This document shows, piece by piece, positions 1,324 to 10,656 of a stretch of 28,489 nucleotides of DNA. The notes below the pieces were generated by a model. It made no database searches. It worked only from the letters and a program-made list of their open reading frames with translations, and was not told the origin of the DNA. The position numbers were made by a program, and so were the translations under genes. This DNA comes from Bacilli bacterium (GTDB lineage: Bacteria > Bacillota_I > Bacilli_A > ML615J-28 > CAG-698), in the NCBI GenBank assembly GCA_016282055.1, contig JAEEJT010000204.1:1-28489 (forward strand), given 5' to 3'. Each line of letters begins with the position of its first letter. The first letter of the stretch is position 1.

Positions 1324-1360
1324 ATTGATTTTATATATATTTAATTGATTTTACATACAT
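1324..1360 (+). repeat. Imperfect 17-bp direct repeat with 20-bp period
   Basis: ATTGATTTTATATATAT (1324-1340) and ATTGATTTTACATACAT (1344-1360), 15/17 identical. The second copy overlaps the predicted -35. Confidence 0.6.
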
Positions 1361-1373
1361 ATTATGATATAAT
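1345..1373 (+). promoter_or_regulatory. Sigma-70/SigA promoter for the GKRP-like gene
   Basis: TTGATT (1345-1350), 17-bp spacer, TG-A-TATAAT (-10 at 1368-1373). RBS AAGGAGGT at 1427-1434. Confidence 0.65.
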
Positions 1374-1441
1374 ATTTTCAGTTATTTAAACAAATATAAC
1401 AATGTTTATATAAATTTAATTCATTCAAGGAGGTATAAGAA

Positions 1442-3211
1442 ATGAATTATAAAGAAGCTGCAAAAGATTTCTTAGAAAATGAAAAGCAATTTCATTTAGG
1501 AGTTATTCCTACTGAACAATCTAACCCATTAACAAGAAATCTAAGTGCTACAATTCAAAGAAATACAGAAGAAGGAGTTAGCATGATTTTAAGTGCTGAC
1601 GTTAATATTCCTACTGTAGCTGCAAAAGCTGTTAAAACTAAAAATTTCCAAAGATTAGTTGCAGATATTAAGAGAGTAATGTATGAAAATAAACGTGTTG
1701 TTATCTCTAGTGTTGGTGCATCTGGAAGAATGGCTATTCAAATTGATGCTGCTTGGAGATATTTCTGGACTAATTTAGCTACTAAATTACCTGAAAAAGC
1801 TGAAAAGTTCTTATACAACGCTAACCGTGTAGAAAGTTTTACTACTGGTGGAGATAGAGCTCTTGTTAGATCTGTTGAAAACTTTGAAGACTATATGACA
1901 TTTGGTGCTCAACAAGTAAGAGATGCTAATATGGGTCCTGGAGATGTATTATTAGGATTATCTGAATGTGGTTTAAGTGCTAGTATTAATGGTAGTGTTT
2001 GTGAAGCTGATGATTTAGGATGCACAACTTATTACTTACACTGCAATCCAAAAGAGATTTTATACGAACATCTAGAAAGATGCCGTAAAGTATTTGATAG
2101 ACCAAAAGTTATTAAAATGCCTTTATTCGTTGGTAATATGGCTGTTAGTGGTTCTACTCGTATGCAAGTAACTACTGTTGAATTATTAGTAGCTGGTGCT
2201 GCATTAGAACTTGCTTGTAACGAATGGTGTCAAGAAAACTTATCTAAAGAAGAACTTGAAGTTGCTGGTTTAGTTGCTTTAGAAGCTAAAGATTATGCTA
2301 GTGAATTCAAGAAATTAAATAAAGCTTTAGCTACAGGTAAAGGATGCAAAGGTTTAGCTGAATTTATCGAATTAGAAAAGAGTGTTTATGATAAGAAAGG
2401 TTTAATTACTTATTGTACTCATGACTATTTACTTGATATCTTAACTGATACAACTGAACGTCAACCTACATTCACTCTTCCTCCATTCCGTAAGTTCAAT
2501 GATACTAACGCTGAATTAAGCTGGGCTTATGTTAAAGATCCACTATATCCAAACGAAGTTGCATGGCAACATGTATTCCGTCGTCCTATGAAGGGTCTTG
2601 ATTGGACTAAAGAAGATTATATTAGACTTGAAGCAAGTCAAGCTATTATTGACAATCCACCAAGTGTTGGAACTGATGAAGTATGTCAATATAACATTGG
2701 TAATTGTGATGATCCATCTAGATATTCTCGTAAACCAAACTGCTTAGTTTGCTTAGATATCAATGGTAGTGCAACTCCTGAAGTTATGGCTTGGTTCAAA
2801 GAAGAAGTTAAGAAATTTGATAAGGGTGTTGTTGTTCGTATGGGTAATATCGGTAAAGGTAAATTATACGAAAACGAAATCAAGATTCCTGTTAAATTAA
2901 AGAGAACTTCTAACGAGTTATTAACTCACTTAATGGTTAAATTAGCATTCAATACTGTAAGTACTGGTACAATGGCTAAGATGGGAAGAGTTTGGGGTAA
3001 CTGGATGATTCAAGTTTTACCAACAAACAAGAAATTAATTGACCGTTCTACACGTATTATCGCTAATATAGCTGGTATTCCATATGAAGAAGCTCTAGAA
3101 GAATTCTTCAAATCATATCTAGGAAGAGATCCAAAAGAAGAATATCGTGAAAGCTATGTTGTTGAAACATTAAAGCGTTTAGGAAAAGATCCTAGTCAAG
3201 ATTTAAAATAA
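1442..3211 (+). CDS. GKRP/MurQ-family SIS-domain sugar-phosphate-binding protein (589 aa, about twice MurQ length)
   Basis: Motifs PTEQSNPLTRNL, GASGRMA, GGDRALVRSVENFED, SGSTRMQ and the C-terminal KLAFNTVSTGTMAKMGRVWGNWM...TNKKLIDR are characteristic of the MurQ/GKRP family. The MurQ catalytic DASECPPT segment is absent (QIDAAWRYF instead). Confidence 0.75.
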   Translation: MNYKEAAKDFLENEKQFHLGVIPTEQSNPLTRNLSATIQRNTEEGVSMILSADVNIPTVAAKAVKTKNFQRLVADIKRVMYENKRVVISSVGASGRMAIQIDAAWRYFWTNLATKLPEKAEKFLYNANRVESFTTGGDRALVRSVENFEDYMTFGAQQVRDANMGPGDVLLGLSECGLSASINGSVCEADDLGCTTYYLHCNPKEILYEHLERCRKVFDRPKVIKMPLFVGNMAVSGSTRMQVTTVELLVAGAALELACNEWCQENLSKEELEVAGLVALEAKDYASEFKKLNKALATGKGCKGLAEFIELEKSVYDKKGLITYCTHDYLLDILTDTTERQPTFTLPPFRKFNDTNAELSWAYVKDPLYPNEVAWQHVFRRPMKGLDWTKEDYIRLEASQAIIDNPPSVGTDEVCQYNIGNCDDPSRYSRKPNCLVCLDINGSATPEVMAWFKEEVKKFDKGVVVRMGNIGKGKLYENEIKIPVKLKRTSNELLTHLMVKLAFNTVSTGTMAKMGRVWGNWMIQVLPTNKKLIDRSTRIIANIAGIPYEEALEEFFKSYLGRDPKEEYRESYVVETLKRLGKDPSQDLK

Positions 3212-3219
3212 AAAATAAT

Positions 3220-3252
3220 AAAGACTTTCTAGAATTTTAGAAAGTCTTTTTT
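3220..3252 (+). terminator. Intrinsic terminator
   Basis: Stem AAAGACTTTCTA (3220-3231) / TAGAAAGTCTTT (3238-3249), 6-nt loop, T-run to 3252, 8 nt after the stop codon. Confidence 0.85.
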
Positions 3253-3269: not shown

Positions 3270-4133
3270 ATGAAAGTATTAGTAATAGGTTTATCTGGTG
3301 AATCAGTATTTTTAAACGTTGATCATTTTAATAATATTGGTGAAACTATACACACTAAAAATAGATTCGTTGAGCCTGGTGGTAAAGGTTATAATCAAGC
3401 TATAGGACTTGGTAGACTAGGAGTAGATGTTAGTTTCATATCAATAGTTGGTAATGATAGTTATTCTAAAACTATTAAGGATGTATTAGTTGAAAATAAT
3501 GTTAAACCATTATTAATAAAAAAAGATAGTTTATCTGATTATGCTGTAATTGTAACTGATAAAACTGGAGAAAATCATGTTATTGTTGATTCTAGTTTGT
3601 CAAGTACTATTACATTTAGTGATATATTAATGTTTGATAAAGAAATACAAGAATGTGATATTATATTATTACAAAATGAATATCCTAAAGATGTATTATA
3701 TAGTATTATTGATTATTACTATAAATTAGGTAAAACTATTGTTTTAAATCCTGCTCCAAGACTTGAATTAAATGAAGAGTATATTAAAAAAATAGATTAT
3801 ATTATTCCTAATGAATTTGAACTTACTAGTTTAGCAAAAGATCATGTATATGAGACTTTATATAATAAAGGTTTAAAACATATAATCTGTACTCGTGGTA
3901 GTAAAGATGTATGTTATTATAATGGAAGTTATCATTATTTTGAAGTAGAAAAAGTAAATGTTGTTGATACAACTGGTGCTGGTGATAGTTTTTGTAGTGG
4001 AATAGTATATGGAATTGCTAATAACATGGATATATTTGATACTATTAGATTTGCTATAAAGGTAAGTGCATATAAGATTACTAAAAAAGGTGCTATTAGT
4101 GGACTACCTTATCTAGCTGATATTAAGGAGTAG
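3270..4133 (+). CDS. rbsK: Ribokinase / PfkB-family carbohydrate kinase
   Basis: PGGKGYNQA, LLQNE, LNPAP, IIPNEFE and DTTGAGDSF PfkB signatures. RBS AAGGAG upstream. Confidence 0.85.
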   Translation: MKVLVIGLSGESVFLNVDHFNNIGETIHTKNRFVEPGGKGYNQAIGLGRLGVDVSFISIVGNDSYSKTIKDVLVENNVKPLLIKKDSLSDYAVIVTDKTGENHVIVDSSLSSTITFSDILMFDKEIQECDIILLQNEYPKDVLYSIIDYYYKLGKTIVLNPAPRLELNEEYIKKIDYIIPNEFELTSLAKDHVYETLYNKGLKHIICTRGSKDVCYYNGSYHYFEVEKVNVVDTTGAGDSFCSGIVYGIANNMDIFDTIRFAIKVSAYKITKKGAISGLPYLADIKE

Positions 4134-4135
4134 AT

Positions 4136-5206
4136 ATGATAAAAGCAATTAGTGTTGGAGTTAAGTTATCAAATGTTACTTTTGATAAGTTTAATTCTGA
4201 AATGAATGAATTAACTGAATTATGTAAAGCTTGTGATATTGAAATAGTAGATAGTATATATCAAGAACTTGATTCTTTTAATAGTGAGTTTTATTGTGGT
4301 AGTGGTAAGGTTAGTGAAATTAAAGATAAATCTTTAGAAAATGAAGCAAGTATTATAGTTTTTAATGATGAACTTACACCTAGTCAAATAAGTCATTTAG
4401 ATGAAGCTATTGGCATTACTATTTATGATAGAACATATCTAATTCTTGAAATATTTAAACAAAGAAGTAAAACTAAAGAATCTATTCTTCAAGTGGAACT
4501 TGCTAGTATTTTATATATGAAGCCAAGATTACAAGCATTAATGAATGGATTTGATAGACAAGGTGGAGGTGGTGGAGGCTTACACTCTAAGGGTGAAGGT
4601 GAAACCAAACTTGATCTAAAGAAACGTCTAACAAATGATAGAATACATGCTTTAAAAATAGAACTTGAAAAACTTAAAAAAGTAAGACAAACTCAAAGAA
4701 AAACAAGACATAATAATGAAATAAAGAATGTATGTCTTGTTGGATACACTAATAGTGGAAAATCAACTCTTCTTAATACTTTTTTAAAGATGAGTAAGGA
4801 TTATACAAAAGAAAAAGAAGTTTTTTCTAAGAATATGCTTTTTGCAACTCTTGAAACAAAAGCTCGTCAAGTAACATTAAATCAAAATAGATTTGTATTA
4901 ACTGATACAGTAGGTTTTATAGAAAAATTACCTCATTCTTTAATAGAAGCTTTTAAATCTACGCTTGAAGAAGTTAGTCAAGCAGATTTATTACTTCATG
5001 TAATTGATATATCTAATCCTGATTATCTAAATCAAATGGAAATTACATCTAGTGTATTAAAGGAATTAAAAGCAGATAATATTCCTACTATTAATGTATT
5101 TAATAAGATTGATTTAGTAAATCAATCATATGTTAAAAATGAATACTTTGATAGTATTAGAATTAGTGCTAAAATAATATTAACATTGAATATTTATATC
5201 AAATGA
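4136..5206 (+). CDS. hflX: GTPase HflX, N-terminal and G domains (C-terminal domain separated by a frameshift)
   Basis: GSGKVSEI, LTPSQ, DRTYLILEIF, G1 GYTNSGKS, LFATLE, G3 DTVGF, G4 NKID and G5 ISAK. After ISAK the frame loses similarity. Confidence 0.92.
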   Translation: MIKAISVGVKLSNVTFDKFNSEMNELTELCKACDIEIVDSIYQELDSFNSEFYCGSGKVSEIKDKSLENEASIIVFNDELTPSQISHLDEAIGITIYDRTYLILEIFKQRSKTKESILQVELASILYMKPRLQALMNGFDRQGGGGGGLHSKGEGETKLDLKKRLTNDRIHALKIELEKLKKVRQTQRKTRHNNEIKNVCLVGYTNSGKSTLLNTFLKMSKDYTKEKEVFSKNMLFATLETKARQVTLNQNRFVLTDTVGFIEKLPHSLIEAFKSTLEEVSQADLLLHVIDISNPDYLNQMEITSSVLKELKADNIPTINVFNKIDLVNQSYVKNEYFDSIRISAKIILTLNIYIK

Positions 5207-5406
5207 TATTAAATAAATTATATCAAGATTATGAATTATTAGAATTATTTATTCCATATGATAATAGTAGTATCTTTTATAAATATTACAATGATTTAAT
5301 TATATTAGGTTTAAAAAAGAATGATAATGGATTACTTGTTAAGATAAAAGCGAGTAAGGAGATATCTAATAAACTAAATATATATAAAAATACTGGAAGA
5401 GATTAA
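5203..5406 (+). CDS. hflX: Detached C-terminal domain of HflX (67 aa)
   Basis: ELFIPYD...GLLVKIK resembles the HflX C-terminal domain. Adding one A to AAAA at 5171-5174 fuses it in frame as ISAKNNINIEYLYQMILNKL. Confidence 0.75.
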   Translation: MILNKLYQDYELLELFIPYDNSSIFYKYYNDLIILGLKKNDNGLLVKIKASKEISNKLNIYKNTGRD

Positions 5407-5420
5407 TCTCTTCCAGTTTT
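5386..5420. terminator. Perfect 26-bp palindrome; probable bidirectional terminator containing both stop codons
   Basis: ACTGGAAGAGA-TTAA-TCTCTTCCAGT (5392-5417). It is followed by T residues on the + strand (5418-5420) and by ATTTTT on the - strand (complement of 5391-5386). Confidence 0.75.
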
Positions 5421-6404
5421 AAAATTATCATATAATTCTAATGCTTTGTTATATATTTCTAAAGTGTTATCATAACTAATTATATCTTTTGCTTTTTTAG
5501 CATCAACCCAAATACCACTTGAGAATATATTTTCAAGATGGAATGCTTGTTTTTGATCTAATACATATGCAAAACAATCAATATGTTTTGTTATCATTTC
5601 ATTACCAAATGGATTAAATAATTCATCTTTGTTATATTTAAAATGACTTGTTGAGAATGTATATTGGTAGTTACCACAATTGCCTAGACAGTATGCATTT
5701 TTGATATCTACACCACTTTCTTCAAGGCATTCTCTAATAGACGCATCTTTACTTGTTTCTCCTTTTTCAATGTGTCCTTTTGGAAATACATATTCATTTC
5801 TTAGGGTTTGTAAAAGAAGAACTTGGTTAGAACAAAATACTATAGCAAGACCAGAGTATTCTTGTTTGTTTTGTTTTTTTGATTTTAAAACAAGTTTTTC
5901 TAAGCTCATTTTGCCATCATAAACATCTTTTGGAAAGTCATATTTACACATTGCAAAATCAAGTAATGATAATTTATCTTGTTTGAACTTTTTAATATAT
6001 GCTTGAAATTTATCACATTCTTGTTTTATTAGATAATTTTTCTTATTAGCACCTTTACAATAAAAATAATGATCTGAAGTATTATCTAGTGCAACAAACC
6101 ATTTGTTTGAATATTCATATATAATAAATGAATTACTATCTGTTATTTTTCCATCATTATAATACAATAAATATGATTCGCAATTAATATTATTTTTAAT
6201 AAAAAAATCACGATATATCTCAACGATATCAAATGATAGACCAGTTTTTGATTTTCTTAGGTCATCTGGTGTTTGTAGTTTATAATTTTCATCACATGAT
6301 GCATACTCGTCAAGATGTTTAACCCCATCTTTATCAAAGTATCCAATCTTAATATTATAGACAAACTTAGACAACTCCTTTAACTTTTTTAAGACTTCAA
6401 TCAT
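5403..6404 (-). CDS. NUDIX hydrolase with an N-terminal extra domain (possibly degenerate transglutaminase-like)
   Basis: Complete Nudix box GHIEKGETSKDASIRECLEESG (5777-5712), preceded by YVFPK. RBS GAGGT upstream. About 180 aa of extra N-terminal sequence. Confidence 0.85.
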   Translation of the reverse strand: MIEVLKKLKELSKFVYNIKIGYFDKDGVKHLDEYASCDENYKLQTPDDLRKSKTGLSFDIVEIYRDFFIKNNINCESYLLYYNDGKITDSNSFIIYEYSNKWFVALDNTSDHYFYCKGANKKNYLIKQECDKFQAYIKKFKQDKLSLLDFAMCKYDFPKDVYDGKMSLEKLVLKSKKQNKQEYSGLAIVFCSNQVLLLQTLRNEYVFPKGHIEKGETSKDASIRECLEESGVDIKNAYCLGNCGNYQYTFSTSHFKYNKDELFNPFGNEMITKHIDCFAYVLDQKQAFHLENIFSSGIWVDAKKAKDIISYDNTLEIYNKALELYDNFKTGRD

Positions 6405-6501: not shown

Positions 6502-9500
6502 ATGAAGGATATTACAGTTAACAATAGAATAGCTAACGAAATTCACTTTAAAAACATATTTTTAAAGAATAGTTATACCGAACTTGGTATAATTGATGTT
6601 GGAGTTTTAGAAAGATTATTAAAGCATGAATTAGTTAAATTTAGTGATATTTATTATTTCCCAATTCTTAATACTGGGTTGGGTCATAGTACAATTAATA
6701 ATGAAGAATTGCAAAAATCAATTCCCTTTTTATTTTTAAAGGAATTAAGTGATAATGATGCTTCAATTCAATTATGTATTACTCATGGATTATTAAAATA
6801 TAAATCAATTGATGAAGATGAAACATTTATGCCTATTGTTTTACTTCCAATTAATATATATTTTGAACGTGAAGATATCTACTGTCAAATGATAGGTAAT
6901 CCTGTTATTAATGAATATATAAGTAATGTAAGTGTAAATGTTAAGTTTAATCAATTACAATCTATTAATATTAAAAGTATTATGGATCTTGATAATGTTT
7001 TATATCAATTAGATAAAATTAATAACATTGAAGTAAAACTTGAAAACTTTTTAACATATGCAACTATTAAAGGAAAAGATATTGTTTTAAACTCTAAATA
7101 TAGTATTAAGAATAGATTATATTATGAGAATAAAAAGATTAATGCTCATTTAAAATATACAAAAGGTTTTTTAAGTAAAGAACAAAATGAAGCATTAGAT
7201 AAACTATTAACAGGAGAAAATCTTGGTATAACAGGTTATAATGGCTGTGGCAAAACAACAGTCGCTGAAAGTTTTATTATTAATGCTGTATGTGATAATA
7301 AAAATGTATTGTACATATCTAATTCACATGAATCTATTAATAGAATGTATAATTTTTTAAAAGACAATAATCTTGAAAAGAATGTTCTTGATTTGAATAA
7401 TTCTTTTTATAAGAATTGTAATAAGGTATATACATATAATAAAGAATTAATATACGATGATGAATTAATTAATGATTATAAGAAGAAAATTAAAGAATTA
7501 GATATCTACTTTGATAATTATGAGAAAACTTTAGGTTATAGTATCAATGATTTTAAGATACTTGATTTAATTAAAAGAAGATTTGTTCTTGATGATGATA
7601 AGTTTAGGCTTGATGAAAATATTATTGATAATGATAAACTTCGTGGGTACTATAAAAATGAGATTGAAGAGATTATATCTCAGATTAAAATAATTGAAGA
7701 TAACTATAATAAGATACCTTCATTTAAAAATAGTACATGGAAAGAAATTCCTTATATTAATAACGTTAATCATGCTAACCAAATTATTACTATTGTTTTA
7801 CAATTAAATACTGGTTTAAAAAAGTTAAAAGAGTATGAAGCATCATTAAATGAATATGGAATGAAAAGCATCCAAAGTTTCTCTGAAATGAGAAAATATA
7901 TTGTTGCGATAAATAATTTAAAAGAGGAAGTTATTCCTTATCAATGGAAAAATAATATTGATTTATTTTATAAAGCTTGTAGTAAATATGAAGAACTTAG
8001 AAATAATATTTTGAAGTATGTTAATACTGATAATTATCTAAATAATAAATATAAAAACTTATTAAGTATTGATATTGATGAAGAGATTAAAAAACTTTAT
8101 GGTAGTTTTTATAAAGAAAGTGACAAGGATTTAATTAATGCAATTATTAAATCACGACCAACATTTAAAAACATTATTGCTTCAATTAATTCTAATCTTT
8201 TGACATTTGATTCTAATTATTTAGATATTAATTTATTAAGTGATTTTGATTTTATCCAAAAAGACGATTATTTTCTTGATGTTAAAAAACTTGTAAAGTT
8301 ATTTAATACATATGATATTAATCATAAGATTATTGAATTATTCCAAAATAATCATATTGGTACAATATCTAAAGATTTAAATAGTTTAAATAAAAAGATA
8401 ACTAATGTATTAAATGATATTAAAGAACTTGAAATTAGTAATCCTAAGTTAAGCAAGATTGACATTGATAAAATAAAAGATATAACTAATGATATTAAAT
8501 CATACATTGAAAAGAAAAAGAAACTTAAACGATTAACTAGAGACTATCGAGAATTAATTGGTTTTAGTTATGAAAATAATACTGATGTAATTAATACTAT
8601 TGAGTTATTAAAAGAATATTATCATGAGATAAAACAAAAATCATATTTTGATAAACTAGTTAAGATAATGAATCTTTGTTTATCTGATTTAACTTTAAAT
8701 GAGTTAAATCTTATTATGTCTAGTTATGATGAAATAATAGTATTTGCAACATTCTTTAATAAGTATGGTTTTGATATTAAGAGTTTCTCTATTAAGAATG
8801 GAATTAGTAAATTAAAAGAATACTTAAAATATTTAGATGAATTATATAAATCTAATGATTGTATTAAATCTTTAATTAATGATTTTAAAGATAGTTATGC
8901 ATACGTTGATGAATACTATAAGATTAAAATGTATAATTCTAATATGATTGAGATGGCTGAAGCATTAAGAAATAACAATGAATTCTATCAATGCTTTGGT
9001 TATCTATATAGTGCTGAAGAAACAAGTATTAGTAATGTAAGTAATGTTATTAAACTATTTAATGAATACATTCATATTTTTAATAGTGACGATGATGCAT
9101 TAAAGAGTTTTAAAGATCTTGGTAAGATTAAGATTATTAGTAGTAATGCTTTTGAATTAATTAACGAGATTATTGAAAACTTACGTTTGTATGGTAATGT
9201 ATTTAAAGATAGTATTAGTAGATACTATTATAGTAATATTAAAGATAATGTTGCTTATTTAAGTAAATTACTTGAAAGTAGAGATGAACTTCAAATATAT
9301 CTTAATATTACTAGAGCTATGACTATATTACATTCTTATAATCTTGATGAGTTTATTGATTATATTGTTAATTTAAGTAATATTAAAGGTGTTAGCAATG
9401 CTTTCTCAAGAAAGTATTATGATTTATTAATAGATGATTTCTTTAGTAAAAATCCTATTGATAATAGTAATGATTATATTAATAAATTAAATGTATATTA

Positions 9501-10656
9501 TTCTATTAATTTAAATTATATTAATAATCTAAATAATAAGATATTAGATAAAAACGTTGATAGAAGTAGTAATATGACTGTTAATTTAAAATATAATAGT
9601 TATAAAGAGTATTTAAGGTATAATAATAGATATAAAGTATTATTATCTAATCAATTATTTGCTGGAATGTACTATAAATACATGGATTACGATATCATCA
9701 TTATTGATGATAGTCATATGATAACTCATGGTGATTTTAATAGTTTATTTAAAAATAAACAGATTGTTGTTTTAGGTGATTATCAAAGTAATAAGATTGT
9801 TAACCAAAACTTGCTTTCTTTGATTAATAATCTTGAGTTTGTTACACTTAAAAATAGATATATAAAAACACCAAGATTATTATCTAATAACCTATCTTAT
9901 GTTATATCTCCTATTCCTTTAGATTACAGTAAGAATAAAGGAATATCTGTATTAACTGAAAAAATAGTTGAAAAGATTTATGATTTATACAAAAATAATA
10001 AAGATGTTCGTATAAATTATTTTATTAAAGATTATAATCATAAGCGTGATACATATGAAAAGATATGTTCATATCTATTAAGTCAAAAGTTAACACCAAA
10101 AGAGATTATTAATTTTATGACTTATAATTTGTTTATTGGTGATATAACTAATAGAAATTATATAGCTAGTGATTTTAATATTCTTTATTTAAGAGATTAT
10201 TGTAATGAGAATAGTCAAATTGTTTCATCAAATCTTTTTGAAATCTTAACGTTAACAAAAGAAGAATTAATTATATATGATTCTAGAAATTATTTAAAAC
10301 AAGATTTTAATTATGATTTCTTTAAACAAATTAAATCAATATGTAATGATAATAATATATTTAAAGGTGAAAGTTATACAAAAGTTGATGAAAAATTAAC
10401 AAGTCTTTTAGAGAAAAGAGGATATGAAATATATTATCCTTCTAATCATTTAAATTTTGTTATTAAAAAACCTAAAGAAAATAAGTTATATCCTTTTGTA
10501 TTATTATTTGATTCTACGTATTTAATTGATGTTAAGAATAATTTTTGTGTATTAAAGAGTCAATATAATTTAGATAAGATAATTGTAAGAACTGTCGTTG
10601 ATTTATTAGATACTAATAAATTAATTGATTCAATATGTGAGGAAATAGATGGCTAG
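6502..10656 (+). CDS. Large DUF4011-type / split SF1 (Upf1-like) helicase-like protein with a degenerate C-terminal restriction-endonuclease-like domain (1384 aa)
   Basis: The N-terminal LCITHGLLKY...MPIVLLPINI...NPVINE resembles DUF4011. Walker A GYNGCGKTT (7234-7260), then a long helical insert, then IIIIDDSHM (Walker B-like, 9691-9720), VVLGDYQ and LKNRY. The C-terminal EKLTSLLEKRGYEI...LNFVI resembles a Vsr/DUF559-like fold. Confidence 0.6.
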   Translation: MKDITVNNRIANEIHFKNIFLKNSYTELGIIDVGVLERLLKHELVKFSDIYYFPILNTGLGHSTINNEELQKSIPFLFLKELSDNDASIQLCITHGLLKYKSIDEDETFMPIVLLPINIYFEREDIYCQMIGNPVINEYISNVSVNVKFNQLQSINIKSIMDLDNVLYQLDKINNIEVKLENFLTYATIKGKDIVLNSKYSIKNRLYYENKKINAHLKYTKGFLSKEQNEALDKLLTGENLGITGYNGCGKTTVAESFIINAVCDNKNVLYISNSHESINRMYNFLKDNNLEKNVLDLNNSFYKNCNKVYTYNKELIYDDELINDYKKKIKELDIYFDNYEKTLGYSINDFKILDLIKRRFVLDDDKFRLDENIIDNDKLRGYYKNEIEEIISQIKIIEDNYNKIPSFKNSTWKEIPYINNVNHANQIITIVLQLNTGLKKLKEYEASLNEYGMKSIQSFSEMRKYIVAINNLKEEVIPYQWKNNIDLFYKACSKYEELRNNILKYVNTDNYLNNKYKNLLSIDIDEEIKKLYGSFYKESDKDLINAIIKSRPTFKNIIASINSNLLTFDSNYLDINLLSDFDFIQKDDYFLDVKKLVKLFNTYDINHKIIELFQNNHIGTISKDLNSLNKKITNVLNDIKELEISNPKLSKIDIDKIKDITNDIKSYIEKKKKLKRLTRDYRELIGFSYENNTDVINTIELLKEYYHEIKQKSYFDKLVKIMNLCLSDLTLNELNLIMSSYDEIIVFATFFNKYGFDIKSFSIKNGISKLKEYLKYLDELYKSNDCIKSLINDFKDSYAYVDEYYKIKMYNSNMIEMAEALRNNNEFYQCFGYLYSAEETSISNVSNVIKLFNEYIHIFNSDDDALKSFKDLGKIKIISSNAFELINEIIENLRLYGNVFKDSISRYYYSNIKDNVAYLSKLLESRDELQIYLNITRAMTILHSYNLDEFIDYIVNLSNIKGVSNAFSRKYYDLLIDDFFSKNPIDNSNDYINKLNVYYSINLNYINNLNNKILDKNVDRSSNMTVNLKYNSYKEYLRYNNRYKVLLSNQLFAGMYYKYMDYDIIIIDDSHMITHGDFNSLFKNKQIVVLGDYQSNKIVNQNLLSLINNLEFVTLKNRYIKTPRLLSNNLSYVISPIPLDYSKNKGISVLTEKIVEKIYDLYKNNKDVRINYFIKDYNHKRDTYEKICSYLLSQKLTPKEIINFMTYNLFIGDITNRNYIASDFNILYLRDYCNENSQIVSSNLFEILTLTKEELIIYDSRNYLKQDFNYDFFKQIKSICNDNNIFKGESYTKVDEKLTSLLEKRGYEIYYPSNHLNFVIKKPKENKLYPFVLLFDSTYLIDVKNNFCVLKSQYNLDKIIVRTVVDLLDTNKLIDSICEEIDG

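Follow-up and report, generated by a model that had tools for sequence, protein, structure and literature searches.

Whether bacteria possess a counterpart of the glucokinase regulatory protein (GKRP), or an enzyme of the same build, is the question raised by a gene at positions 1442-3211 of contig JAEEJT010000204.1, which belongs to the metagenome-assembled genome (MAG) of a Bacilli bacterium and was analysed over its full length of 28,489 nucleotides (the window). The gene, on the forward strand, is an ATG-started open reading frame (ORF) of 589 amino acids (aa). GKRP is the textbook example of an enzyme turned regulator and is described as the product of a duplicated and unevenly fused bacterial murQ, the gene of the etherase for MurNAc-6P (N-acetylmuramic acid 6-phosphate). 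A first-pass annotation, made from the letters of the window alone, had taken the 589-aa protein to resemble GKRP more than MurQ and had proposed a sugar-phosphate sensor without etherase activity or an unusual isomerase. Our analysis points elsewhere: judged by its conserved residues and by the genes found with it, the protein, a pseudo-dimer in one chain that belongs to the MurQ/GKRP superfamily, most likely works as an enzyme. This superfamily and the GKRP architecture are known already; the bacterial protein with two SIS domains, called here the long form, is uncharacterised and well conserved. We found no paper characterising it, with the reservation that it may be mentioned in Veiga-da-Cunha 2009.

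The motifs listed in the first-pass annotation could all be located in the translation, namely PTEQSNPLTRNL (aa 23-34), GASGRMA (92-98), GGDRALVRSVENFED (136-150), CNP (201-203), SGSTRM (236-241) and NTVSTG (504-509). The GKRP motifs that it had quoted were roughly right, as in the PDB alignments 4lc9_A shows ITEKSNPLTRNL, GTSGRMA, GGDRSVVASREQTED and NTVSTG, and the Xenopus chain 3w0l_B shows SGSSRM. Against the sequences of the PDB, the query matched the Yersinia MurQ (4s12) with an E value of 8e-19 and the GKRP chains with E values of 7e-8 to 8e-6; the similarity to both is far above chance. With a profile of 66 family sequences the scores were 172 bits for the Yersinia MurQ, 114 for the Haemophilus MurQ and 95-106 for GKRP, so that, by sequence, MurQ lies no farther from the protein than vertebrate GKRP does. 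Among the Pfam models, GKRP_SIS_N (PF22645) passed its cut-off with 38 bits, GKRP-like_C (PF20741) remained at 20.9 bits, under the cut-off of 27.7, and GKRP_SIS_2 (PF22198) matched neither the query nor any of 45 SIS-2 segments of the family. The names of these models should not be over-read, since the canonical MurQ of a related genome matches all three of them (GKRP_SIS_N 69, GKRP_SIS_2 36.6 and GKRP-like_C 30.9 bits) and they are thus not GKRP-specific. When the ESM Atlas was queried with a homologue, the clusters obtained were bacterial GKRP_SIS_N ones, at 0.97, and one of chordate GKRP, at 0.92; they serve as leads only.

The MurQ models of NCBIfam (TIGR00274, NF003915 and NF009222) match the protein in two stretches, aa 22-250 and approx. 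497-551, and their cut-offs are missed in each case (93.7 bits versus 302, 123.9 versus 168 and 94.5 versus 255). In a tree calculated on 297 shared columns of SIS-1 and lid, with MurQ sampled from Bacillota relatives and Bacteroidota only, 71 long forms and 24 canonical MurQ sequences were split by a branch of about 2 changes per site, which received 100% support in the Shimodaira-Hasegawa-like approximate likelihood ratio test. The protein is therefore not nested within bona fide MurQ, a position which the first-pass annotation had named as contrary to its proposal, but belongs to a separate clade.

The order of the domains was obtained from an AlphaFold2 model built on the 66-sequence alignment (predicted local distance difference test, pLDDT, 95.3; predicted template modelling score, pTM, 0.94). 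In Foldseek the GKRP chains occupied ranks 1-7, with E values around 1e-18 and approx. 630 aligned columns, that is the full length, whereas MurQ (E 4e-9) covered half of the model; the double-SIS enzymes GlmS, NagB-II and FrlB were found with E values around 1e-8. Using VIA-align, residues 10-589 of the model were superposed on residues 5-602 of the GKRP chain (4bba, 4bb9, 3w0l and 4lc9; Z 33-36, root-mean-square deviation (rmsd) 3.1-3.3 Å, 468-503 residues), 4bba being the best match with Z 36 and 503 residues. MurQ 4s12 was superposed on the N-terminal half only (Z 21.5, rmsd 1.7 Å, 217 residues) and the other double-SIS enzymes reached a Z of about 23. As modelled, the protein has the GKRP architecture, with SIS-1, SIS-2 and lid in this order, and the two-SIS build suggested earlier is borne out by the superposition over the full length. 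The resemblance to GKRP rather than to MurQ holds for the fold (Z 36 versus 21.5) and fails for the profile score (172 bits for MurQ versus 105 for GKRP). The middle part of approx. 240 residues is itself a SIS fold and not an unrelated insert next to a single SIS domain: when aa 270-496 were folded alone by AlphaFold2, a pLDDT of 88 was obtained, and the best VIA matches, to SIS-2 of GKRP (residues 277-479, Z 10-11) and to MurQ (Z 10.3), were tied.

The residues expected of a MurQ-type active site are distributed over these domains. SIS-1 retains the TE motif (Glu25), the phosphate loop GASGR (92-96), the GGD...VENFED segment (Glu146, Glu149 and Asp150), a SECGLSAS loop (174-181) and GSTRM (237-241), while the lid retains the MurQ motif and matches MurQ with 31.6 bits alone and 62 bits with the family profile. 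Where MurQ has DASECPPTF, SIS-1 contains a helical insert of aa approx. 100-128, to which GKRP aligns. The catalytic base of MurQ is said, after the work of Hadi et al., to be Glu83 in the E. coli numbering. The absence of DASECPPT and its catalytic Glu, reported in the first-pass annotation, is real for SIS-1 only; a cognate TDTTERQPTF motif is found in SIS-2, aligned with DAxECPPTF, and its Glu339 is invariant. This alignment was obtained by comparing a SIS-2 profile with one of 24 canonical MurQ sequences in hhalign (score 37.5, P 8e-5; none of 30 column-shuffled controls exceeded 22.3, and the reversed control scored 13.6), in the register vTYxA..yl..LDILTDTTERsPTF on lIYxGAGTSGRiGilDAxECpPTF. 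Comparison of SIS-2 with SIS-1 by hhalign was not significant, and none of the 45 SIS-2 segments matched any SIS or GKRP model of Pfam, the only matches at all being isolated ones at chance level (E >= 0.027). On the sequence evidence, SIS-2 appears to have dropped the GxSGR phosphate loop and to have retained the counterpart of the catalytic Glu of MurQ.

Conservation is strict at these positions. In the 66 diverse family members Asp336, Glu339, Arg340, Pro342 and Thr343 of the SIS-2 motif are invariant, and so are Glu25, Gly92, Gly95, Arg96, Glu146, Glu149, Asp150, Ser238, Thr239, Arg240 and Arg535; among the 150 best cluster representatives, nearly every one carries the signature DT[TSA]ERxPT[FY]. 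The active-site motifs are near-identical in both major clades of the family, except for the loop which reads SECGLSAS in Bacillota and TEGGETSS in the other. According to the VIA ranges, which are approximate, Glu339 maps near residue 348 of GKRP, which we take to be, again approximately, a ligand-contacting Glu of its SIS-2.

We consider it fairly probable that the long form is a single-chain lactyl-etherase of MurQ type, acting on MurNAc-6P or a modified relative and supplied, in this lineage, by the PfkB kinase encoded next to it. From the distribution of the motifs we infer an active site formed in trans within one chain: SIS-1 would supply the phosphate loops GASGR, SECGLSAS and GSTRM together with Glu146 of VENFED as acid/base, SIS-2, having lost phosphate binding, would supply Glu339 of DTTERQPTF, and the C-terminal lid would close the composite site. 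One chain would then have one composite site and mimic one of the two sites of the MurQ homodimer. The reaction would proceed by C2 enolisation of the open-chain sugar 6-phosphate, beta-elimination of the 3-O-(D-lactyl) ether and hydration. The putative substrate is MurNAc-6-phosphate or a closely related, modified lactyl-ether amino sugar phosphate, with a sugar of GlcNAc-6-P type and D-lactate as products. It would probably be made by the adjacent kinase, and the pair would parallel the canonical MurK-like–AnmK–MurQ route.

The kinase gene follows the long form after a spacer of 58 nucleotides. Its product is related to ribokinases, which are its best matches among the PDB sequences (E 6.5e-36), and it scores 220 bits against the ribokinase model TIGR02152, under the cut-off of 299.65. 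The GGKGxNQA, NPAP and DTTGAGD motifs are kept, whereas a GLxG(E/D/N/Q)S signature stands where ribokinases have the ribose-binding GSxNxD. In the Bacillota clade, the kinase adjoins the long form in 15 of the 33 loci with both flanks, on the same strand and on either side (-1 or +1). The two genes are also neighbours in the relatives G004, G008, G026, G027 and G028; each relative has one such ribokinase-like gene, and G007 has neither the long form nor the kinase nor MurQ.

The wider family was examined in clustered protein collections and in contigs from one genome per species. In the collection clustered at 90%, numerous proteins with a length of 587-610 aa share 65-85% identity with the query (from Bacilli, Acholeplasmataceae and Clostridia MAGs), 330 clusters match at 50% clustering (E <= 1e-30), and at least 593 stretches encode a relative; the members that were aligned all have intact, full-length frames. 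These stretches come from Bacillota, Bacteroidota, Spirochaetota, Planctomycetota, Lentisphaerota, Kiritimatiellota, WS1 and Armatimonadota. The 150 best cluster representatives are bacterial in type without exception, and 20 distant representatives gave only bacterial or unnamed records. In the tree of long forms a tight Bacillota clade of 39 rows, the window included, stands apart from a group from Bacteroidota, the PVC (Planctomycetes, Verrucomicrobia, Chlamydiae) phyla and spirochaetes. Three placements disagree with their labels: L074, labelled Paratractidigestivibacter (Actinomycetota), has a long form that hardly differs from those in Thermoguttaceae MAGs (L072, L073), and L006 and L010, labelled Bacteroidales, fall within the Bacillota clade. 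These three are likely mis-binned contigs or cases of recent transfer.

The genes around long forms elsewhere, some of which were identified by BLAST only, support a role in the catabolism of MurNAc or peptidoglycan. In two Bacteroidales loci (L065, L055) the order is FAD-oxidase_C with 4Fe-4S, a gene of unknown product, NamZ, NlpC/P60-SH3 (YkfC-like), MR_MLE (a YkfB-like epimerase), long form, SusC and SusD, and a NamZ homologue flanks the long form in a Clostridia locus (L032). GH20, DUF4838, DUF6259 and MFS genes are further neighbours. Among 35 fusion proteins of more than 1031 aa, DUF6259 is present in 24; the other partners are DUF4838/GH20b, GH2, sulfatase, SGNH esterase, a GlcNAc-2-epimerase-family domain and a GNAT domain. 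In one protein of 1076 aa (P0308) the long form is fused to a FAD D-2-hydroxyacid oxidase of GlcD type (TIGR00387, 368 bits), which fits the release of D-lactate and hints that the long form sets free this or a similar acid; the leaving group in the MurQ reaction is D-lactate. In three of five distant genomes the long form occurs and canonical MurQ is absent.

DUF6259, the commonest fusion partner, is also a frequent neighbour in Lentisphaerota, Kiritimatiellota and Bacteroidota (P0293-P0322; L048, L046 and others), often together with DUF4838 or GH20-like domains, and is possibly a glycosidase, so far uncharacterised, that acts in the same pathway. A literature search on DUF6259 and DUF4838 gave nothing useful.

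The statement of the first-pass annotation that no murein-recycling context is visible is correct within the window and does not hold for the genome. The source MAG (1.33 Mb in 214 contigs, 84% complete; its congeners have approx. 2 Mb) encodes a NamZ exo-beta-N-acetylmuramidase and, on another contig (G000 contig C158, L001 1477-1935, minus strand), a canonical MurQ of which the contig end leaves the C-terminal 152 aa; an alpha/beta hydrolase comes next. In relatives (loci L084-L103) a conserved operon consists of a BadF/BadG-type (MurK-like) kinase, AnmK, MurQ and an alpha/beta hydrolase, often beside electron transfer flavoprotein (ETF) genes. Among 41 related genomes canonical MurQ was found above the cut-off in 32 and the long form likewise in 32, both being present in approx. 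29. The source organism has the standard MurNAc route, and very probably it has a wall. MurA was not found in the source MAG at its 84% completeness; the idea of a wall-less organism was rejected, given that MurA is present in 6 of 6 congeners and its absence is probably due to the incompleteness of the MAG.

In 12 of 24 genomes of the same family, 93-98% complete (G008, G010, G012-G017, G020-G023), no MurA match was found at E <= 1e-20. Canonical MurQ is retained in most of these MurA-negative relatives, and frequently the long form as well, which suggests wall-less or wall-reduced lineages scavenging MurNAc.

Several observations weigh against the etherase reading. The position of Glu339 at the phosphate site of SIS-1 is a deduction from the alignments, and the homology of SIS-2 to MurQ depends on the fold and on one controlled profile-profile comparison; with HMMER, the SIS-2 profile had no relevant match among the PDB sequences and Pfam. 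The ASGRTPY loop of MurQ is swapped for SECGLSAS or TEGGETSS, thus the substrate contacts should differ from those of MurQ. We know of no MurNAc kinase of PfkB type, and the neighbouring kinase resembles a ribokinase whose sugar pocket has changed. Of the 32 related carriers of the long form, about 29 also have canonical MurQ, as do 2 of 5 distant genomes; beside it, another MurNAc-6P etherase would be superfluous, and this hints at a substrate that is different or modified. The GlcD fusion was seen in one protein only, and the sulfatase, GH2 and GFO/IDH oxidoreductase genes that neighbour the long form in PVC bacteria and Bacteroidota speak for amino-sugar glycans generally and not for peptidoglycan specifically.

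The same fold and site could also serve another reaction or substrate, the long form being an isomerase, a deaminase or a deglycase of an (amino)sugar phosphate provided by the PfkB kinase. FrlD/FrlB (a PfkB kinase with a double-SIS deglycase), NagB-II/AgaS and the MurQ-related GlcNAc-6P dehydratase NagS would be its analogues. This alternative, which we regard as the strongest of the rivals and nevertheless as unlikely, draws on the canonical MurQ operon coexisting in most relatives, on the altered pocket of the ribokinase-like partner, on a substrate loop unlike that of MurQ, on the double-SIS isomerases and deaminases being the next-best structural matches (Z about 23), on the sulfatase, GH2, GlcNAc-2-epimerase-family, GNAT and GFO/IDH proteins among fusions and neighbours, and on the functional divergence of the MurQ relative NagS (PMC12680351). 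It does not account for the invariance of both MurQ-type Glu residues and of the whole lid motif, and the NamZ, YkfC-like and YkfB-like neighbours as well as the GlcD-type fusion fit the cleavage of a lactyl ether. Two vacancies that such an enzyme might have occupied are already filled: a missing ribose-5-phosphate isomerase was rejected, as 12 of 13 genomes have RpiB and the thirteenth has RpiA, and so was a missing GlcN-6P deaminase, as 37 of 41 genomes, the source genome included, encode NagB-I.

The sensor of the first-pass annotation, in its most concrete form a non-catalytic protein that binds and regulates the adjacent PfkB kinase and is thus the functional bacterial counterpart of GKRP, would agree with the GKRP architecture, with a sugar kinase that adjoins and co-occurs, with the GLSA loop common to the Bacillota clade and GKRP, and with the sensing of the ligand by vertebrate GKRP through its old active site (bioRxiv 10.64898/2026.05.08.723886). 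We hold it to be quite improbable. The catalytic and phosphate-binding residues are invariant or nearly so across phyla, and most members outside Bacillota have no adjacent kinase and are found in glycan-catabolic, in part peptidoglycan-catabolic, loci or in fusions with glycosidase-like proteins or a GlcD-type oxidase. Where the kinase is present, it lies on one side or the other (-1 or +1), a variation often seen in metabolic pairs. Regulation by GKRP is a late innovation of jawed vertebrates, its target has the hexokinase fold and not that of PfkB (bioRxiv 10.64898/2026.05.08.723886), and outside jawed vertebrates the proteins built like GKRP are reported to be etherases (same preprint). 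A redundant or decaying murQ duplicate without a function of its own, which the co-occurrence with canonical MurQ might indicate, has hardly any probability left: 65-85% identity across many Bacilli and Clostridia MAGs, occurrence in at least 593 species, intact frames and the long, fully supported branch that separates the family from MurQ effectively refute it.

Among known systems, the best functional analogy is probably provided by the GKRP-like etherases of eukaryotes other than vertebrates. According to bioRxiv 10.64898/2026.05.08.723886, which cites Veiga-da-Cunha 2009, proteins of this architecture from Naegleria, lancelet and frog are active as MurNAc-6P etherases, and binding and inhibition of glucokinase by GKRP, which fructose phosphates modulate, arose only in jawed vertebrates (same preprint). 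The reported etherases of Naegleria gruberi and lancelet have, like the long form, approx. 600 aa, the SIS-1/SIS-2/lid order and a SIS-1 which lacks the DASEC Glu and contains a helical insert at its place; the long form differs in being bacterial, in a SIS-2 without a PF22198 match (0 of 45) and in its own signature DT[TSA]ERxPTF. Canonical MurQ is the best match by sequence and has the TE motif, GxSGR, a VEGAED-type Glu, GSTRM and the lid motifs in common with the long form. However, it has approx. 300 aa, with one SIS domain and C-terminal helices, and forms a homodimer, whereas the long form has two SIS domains per chain; its DAxECPPTF follows GxSGR directly in the same domain, while the cognate motif of the long form is in SIS-2. 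The two are paralogues, coexisting in most related genomes and belonging to separate clades. Vertebrate GKRP (4bb9, 4bba, 4lc9, 3w0l) is the best structural match over the full length (Z 36, rmsd 3.2 Å) and has in common the short motifs TE.SNPLT, G.SGRMA, GGDR, SGS.RM and NTVSTG; it is 15-20% identical and, unlike the proposed enzyme, a glucokinase inhibitor whose etherase activity is slight or absent. The isomerase domain of GlmS, NagB-II, AgaS and FrlB likewise have two SIS folds, with one or two 6-phosphosugar sites, and FrlB is paired with the PfkB kinase FrlD; the structural match to these enzymes is weaker (Z about 23), and they have neither the MurQ-type lid nor the MurQ motifs. With HMMER, no double-SIS isomerase or deaminase in the PDB was matched, except for phosphoheptose isomerase (E 2.6e-5). 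NagS is an example of a MurQ relative in which the reaction has changed.

The features of the locus are collected in Table 1.

Table 1. Coordinates of the long-form gene, its domains and the adjoining elements in the window.
Feature	Position	Strand	Remarks
Promoter-like site, TTGATT-17 nt-TGnTATAAT	1345..1373	+	10/12 consensus matches, extended -10, upstream of the long-form gene; consensus match only, in a region with no overall excess of such sites
Ribosome-binding site AAGGAGG	1429..1435	+	7 nt upstream of ATG; read directly
Long-form ORF of the MurQ/GKRP superfamily (SIS-1, SIS-2, lid)	1442..3211	+	589 aa
N-terminal helices and SIS-1	1442..2206 (aa 1-255)	+	aligns with MurQ residues 4-207
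SIS-2, divergent SIS fold without a Pfam model	2249..2929 (aa 270-496)	+	no GxSGR loop; motif of the MurQ catalytic Glu kept
TDTTERQPTF motif with Glu339, proposed catalytic base	2444..2473 (aa 335-344)	+	invariant columns and alignment to MurQ
C-terminal lid with KLAFNTVSTGTMAKMGRVWGNWM...NKKLIDRSTRI	2930..3208 (aa 497-589)	+	aligns with MurQ 202-269 and GKRP lid 470-560
AT-rich perfect palindromic hairpin, 12 bp, flanked by an A-run and a T-run	3220..3249	.	between long form and kinase
PfkB sugar kinase, ribokinase subfamily	3270..4133	+	287 aa; own AAGGAG site; Pfam PfkB 158 bits

The hairpin in the spacer, which received a terminator-like call on the minus strand only, is possibly a weak bidirectional terminator or an element that stabilises or processes the mRNA, to judge from its letters. 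Beyond the kinase, an ORF of 356 aa for an HflX-type GTPase (4136-5206) begins 3 nt past the kinase stop and is presumably short at its C-terminus compared with typical HflX. On the minus strand, 5403-6404 encodes a 333-aa protein in which NUDIX is restricted to aa 187-253, in the C-terminal half, and no Pfam model matches the N-terminal 180 aa. A very AT-rich ORF of 1384 aa (6502-10656) contains the P-loop GYNGCGKTT and possibly codes for a large helicase or ATPase.

Among bacteria, the fused architecture known from GKRP is thus found widely and under strong conservation, with what would be one composite site, and only its second domain has retained the catalytic Glu. This architecture may have had a single origin, in bacteria, from which eukaryotes received the gene in its fused state, a scenario which we put forward tentatively and hold to be somewhat doubtful. 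If one fusion event underlies both the bacterial and the eukaryotic forms, it would be older than the eukaryotes; if not, they would represent a clear case of convergent domain duplication. The family is common in gut and rumen bacteria, where its members are now labelled 'hypothetical protein', 'sugar phosphate isomerase', JGI 'MurNAc-6P etherase' or 'MurQ', this last one mistakenly at the equivalog level. The long form likely marks an unrecognised step or branch in the scavenging of peptidoglycan and amino sugars, with a dedicated PfkB kinase and with the uncharacterised DUF6259 and DUF4838 proteins.

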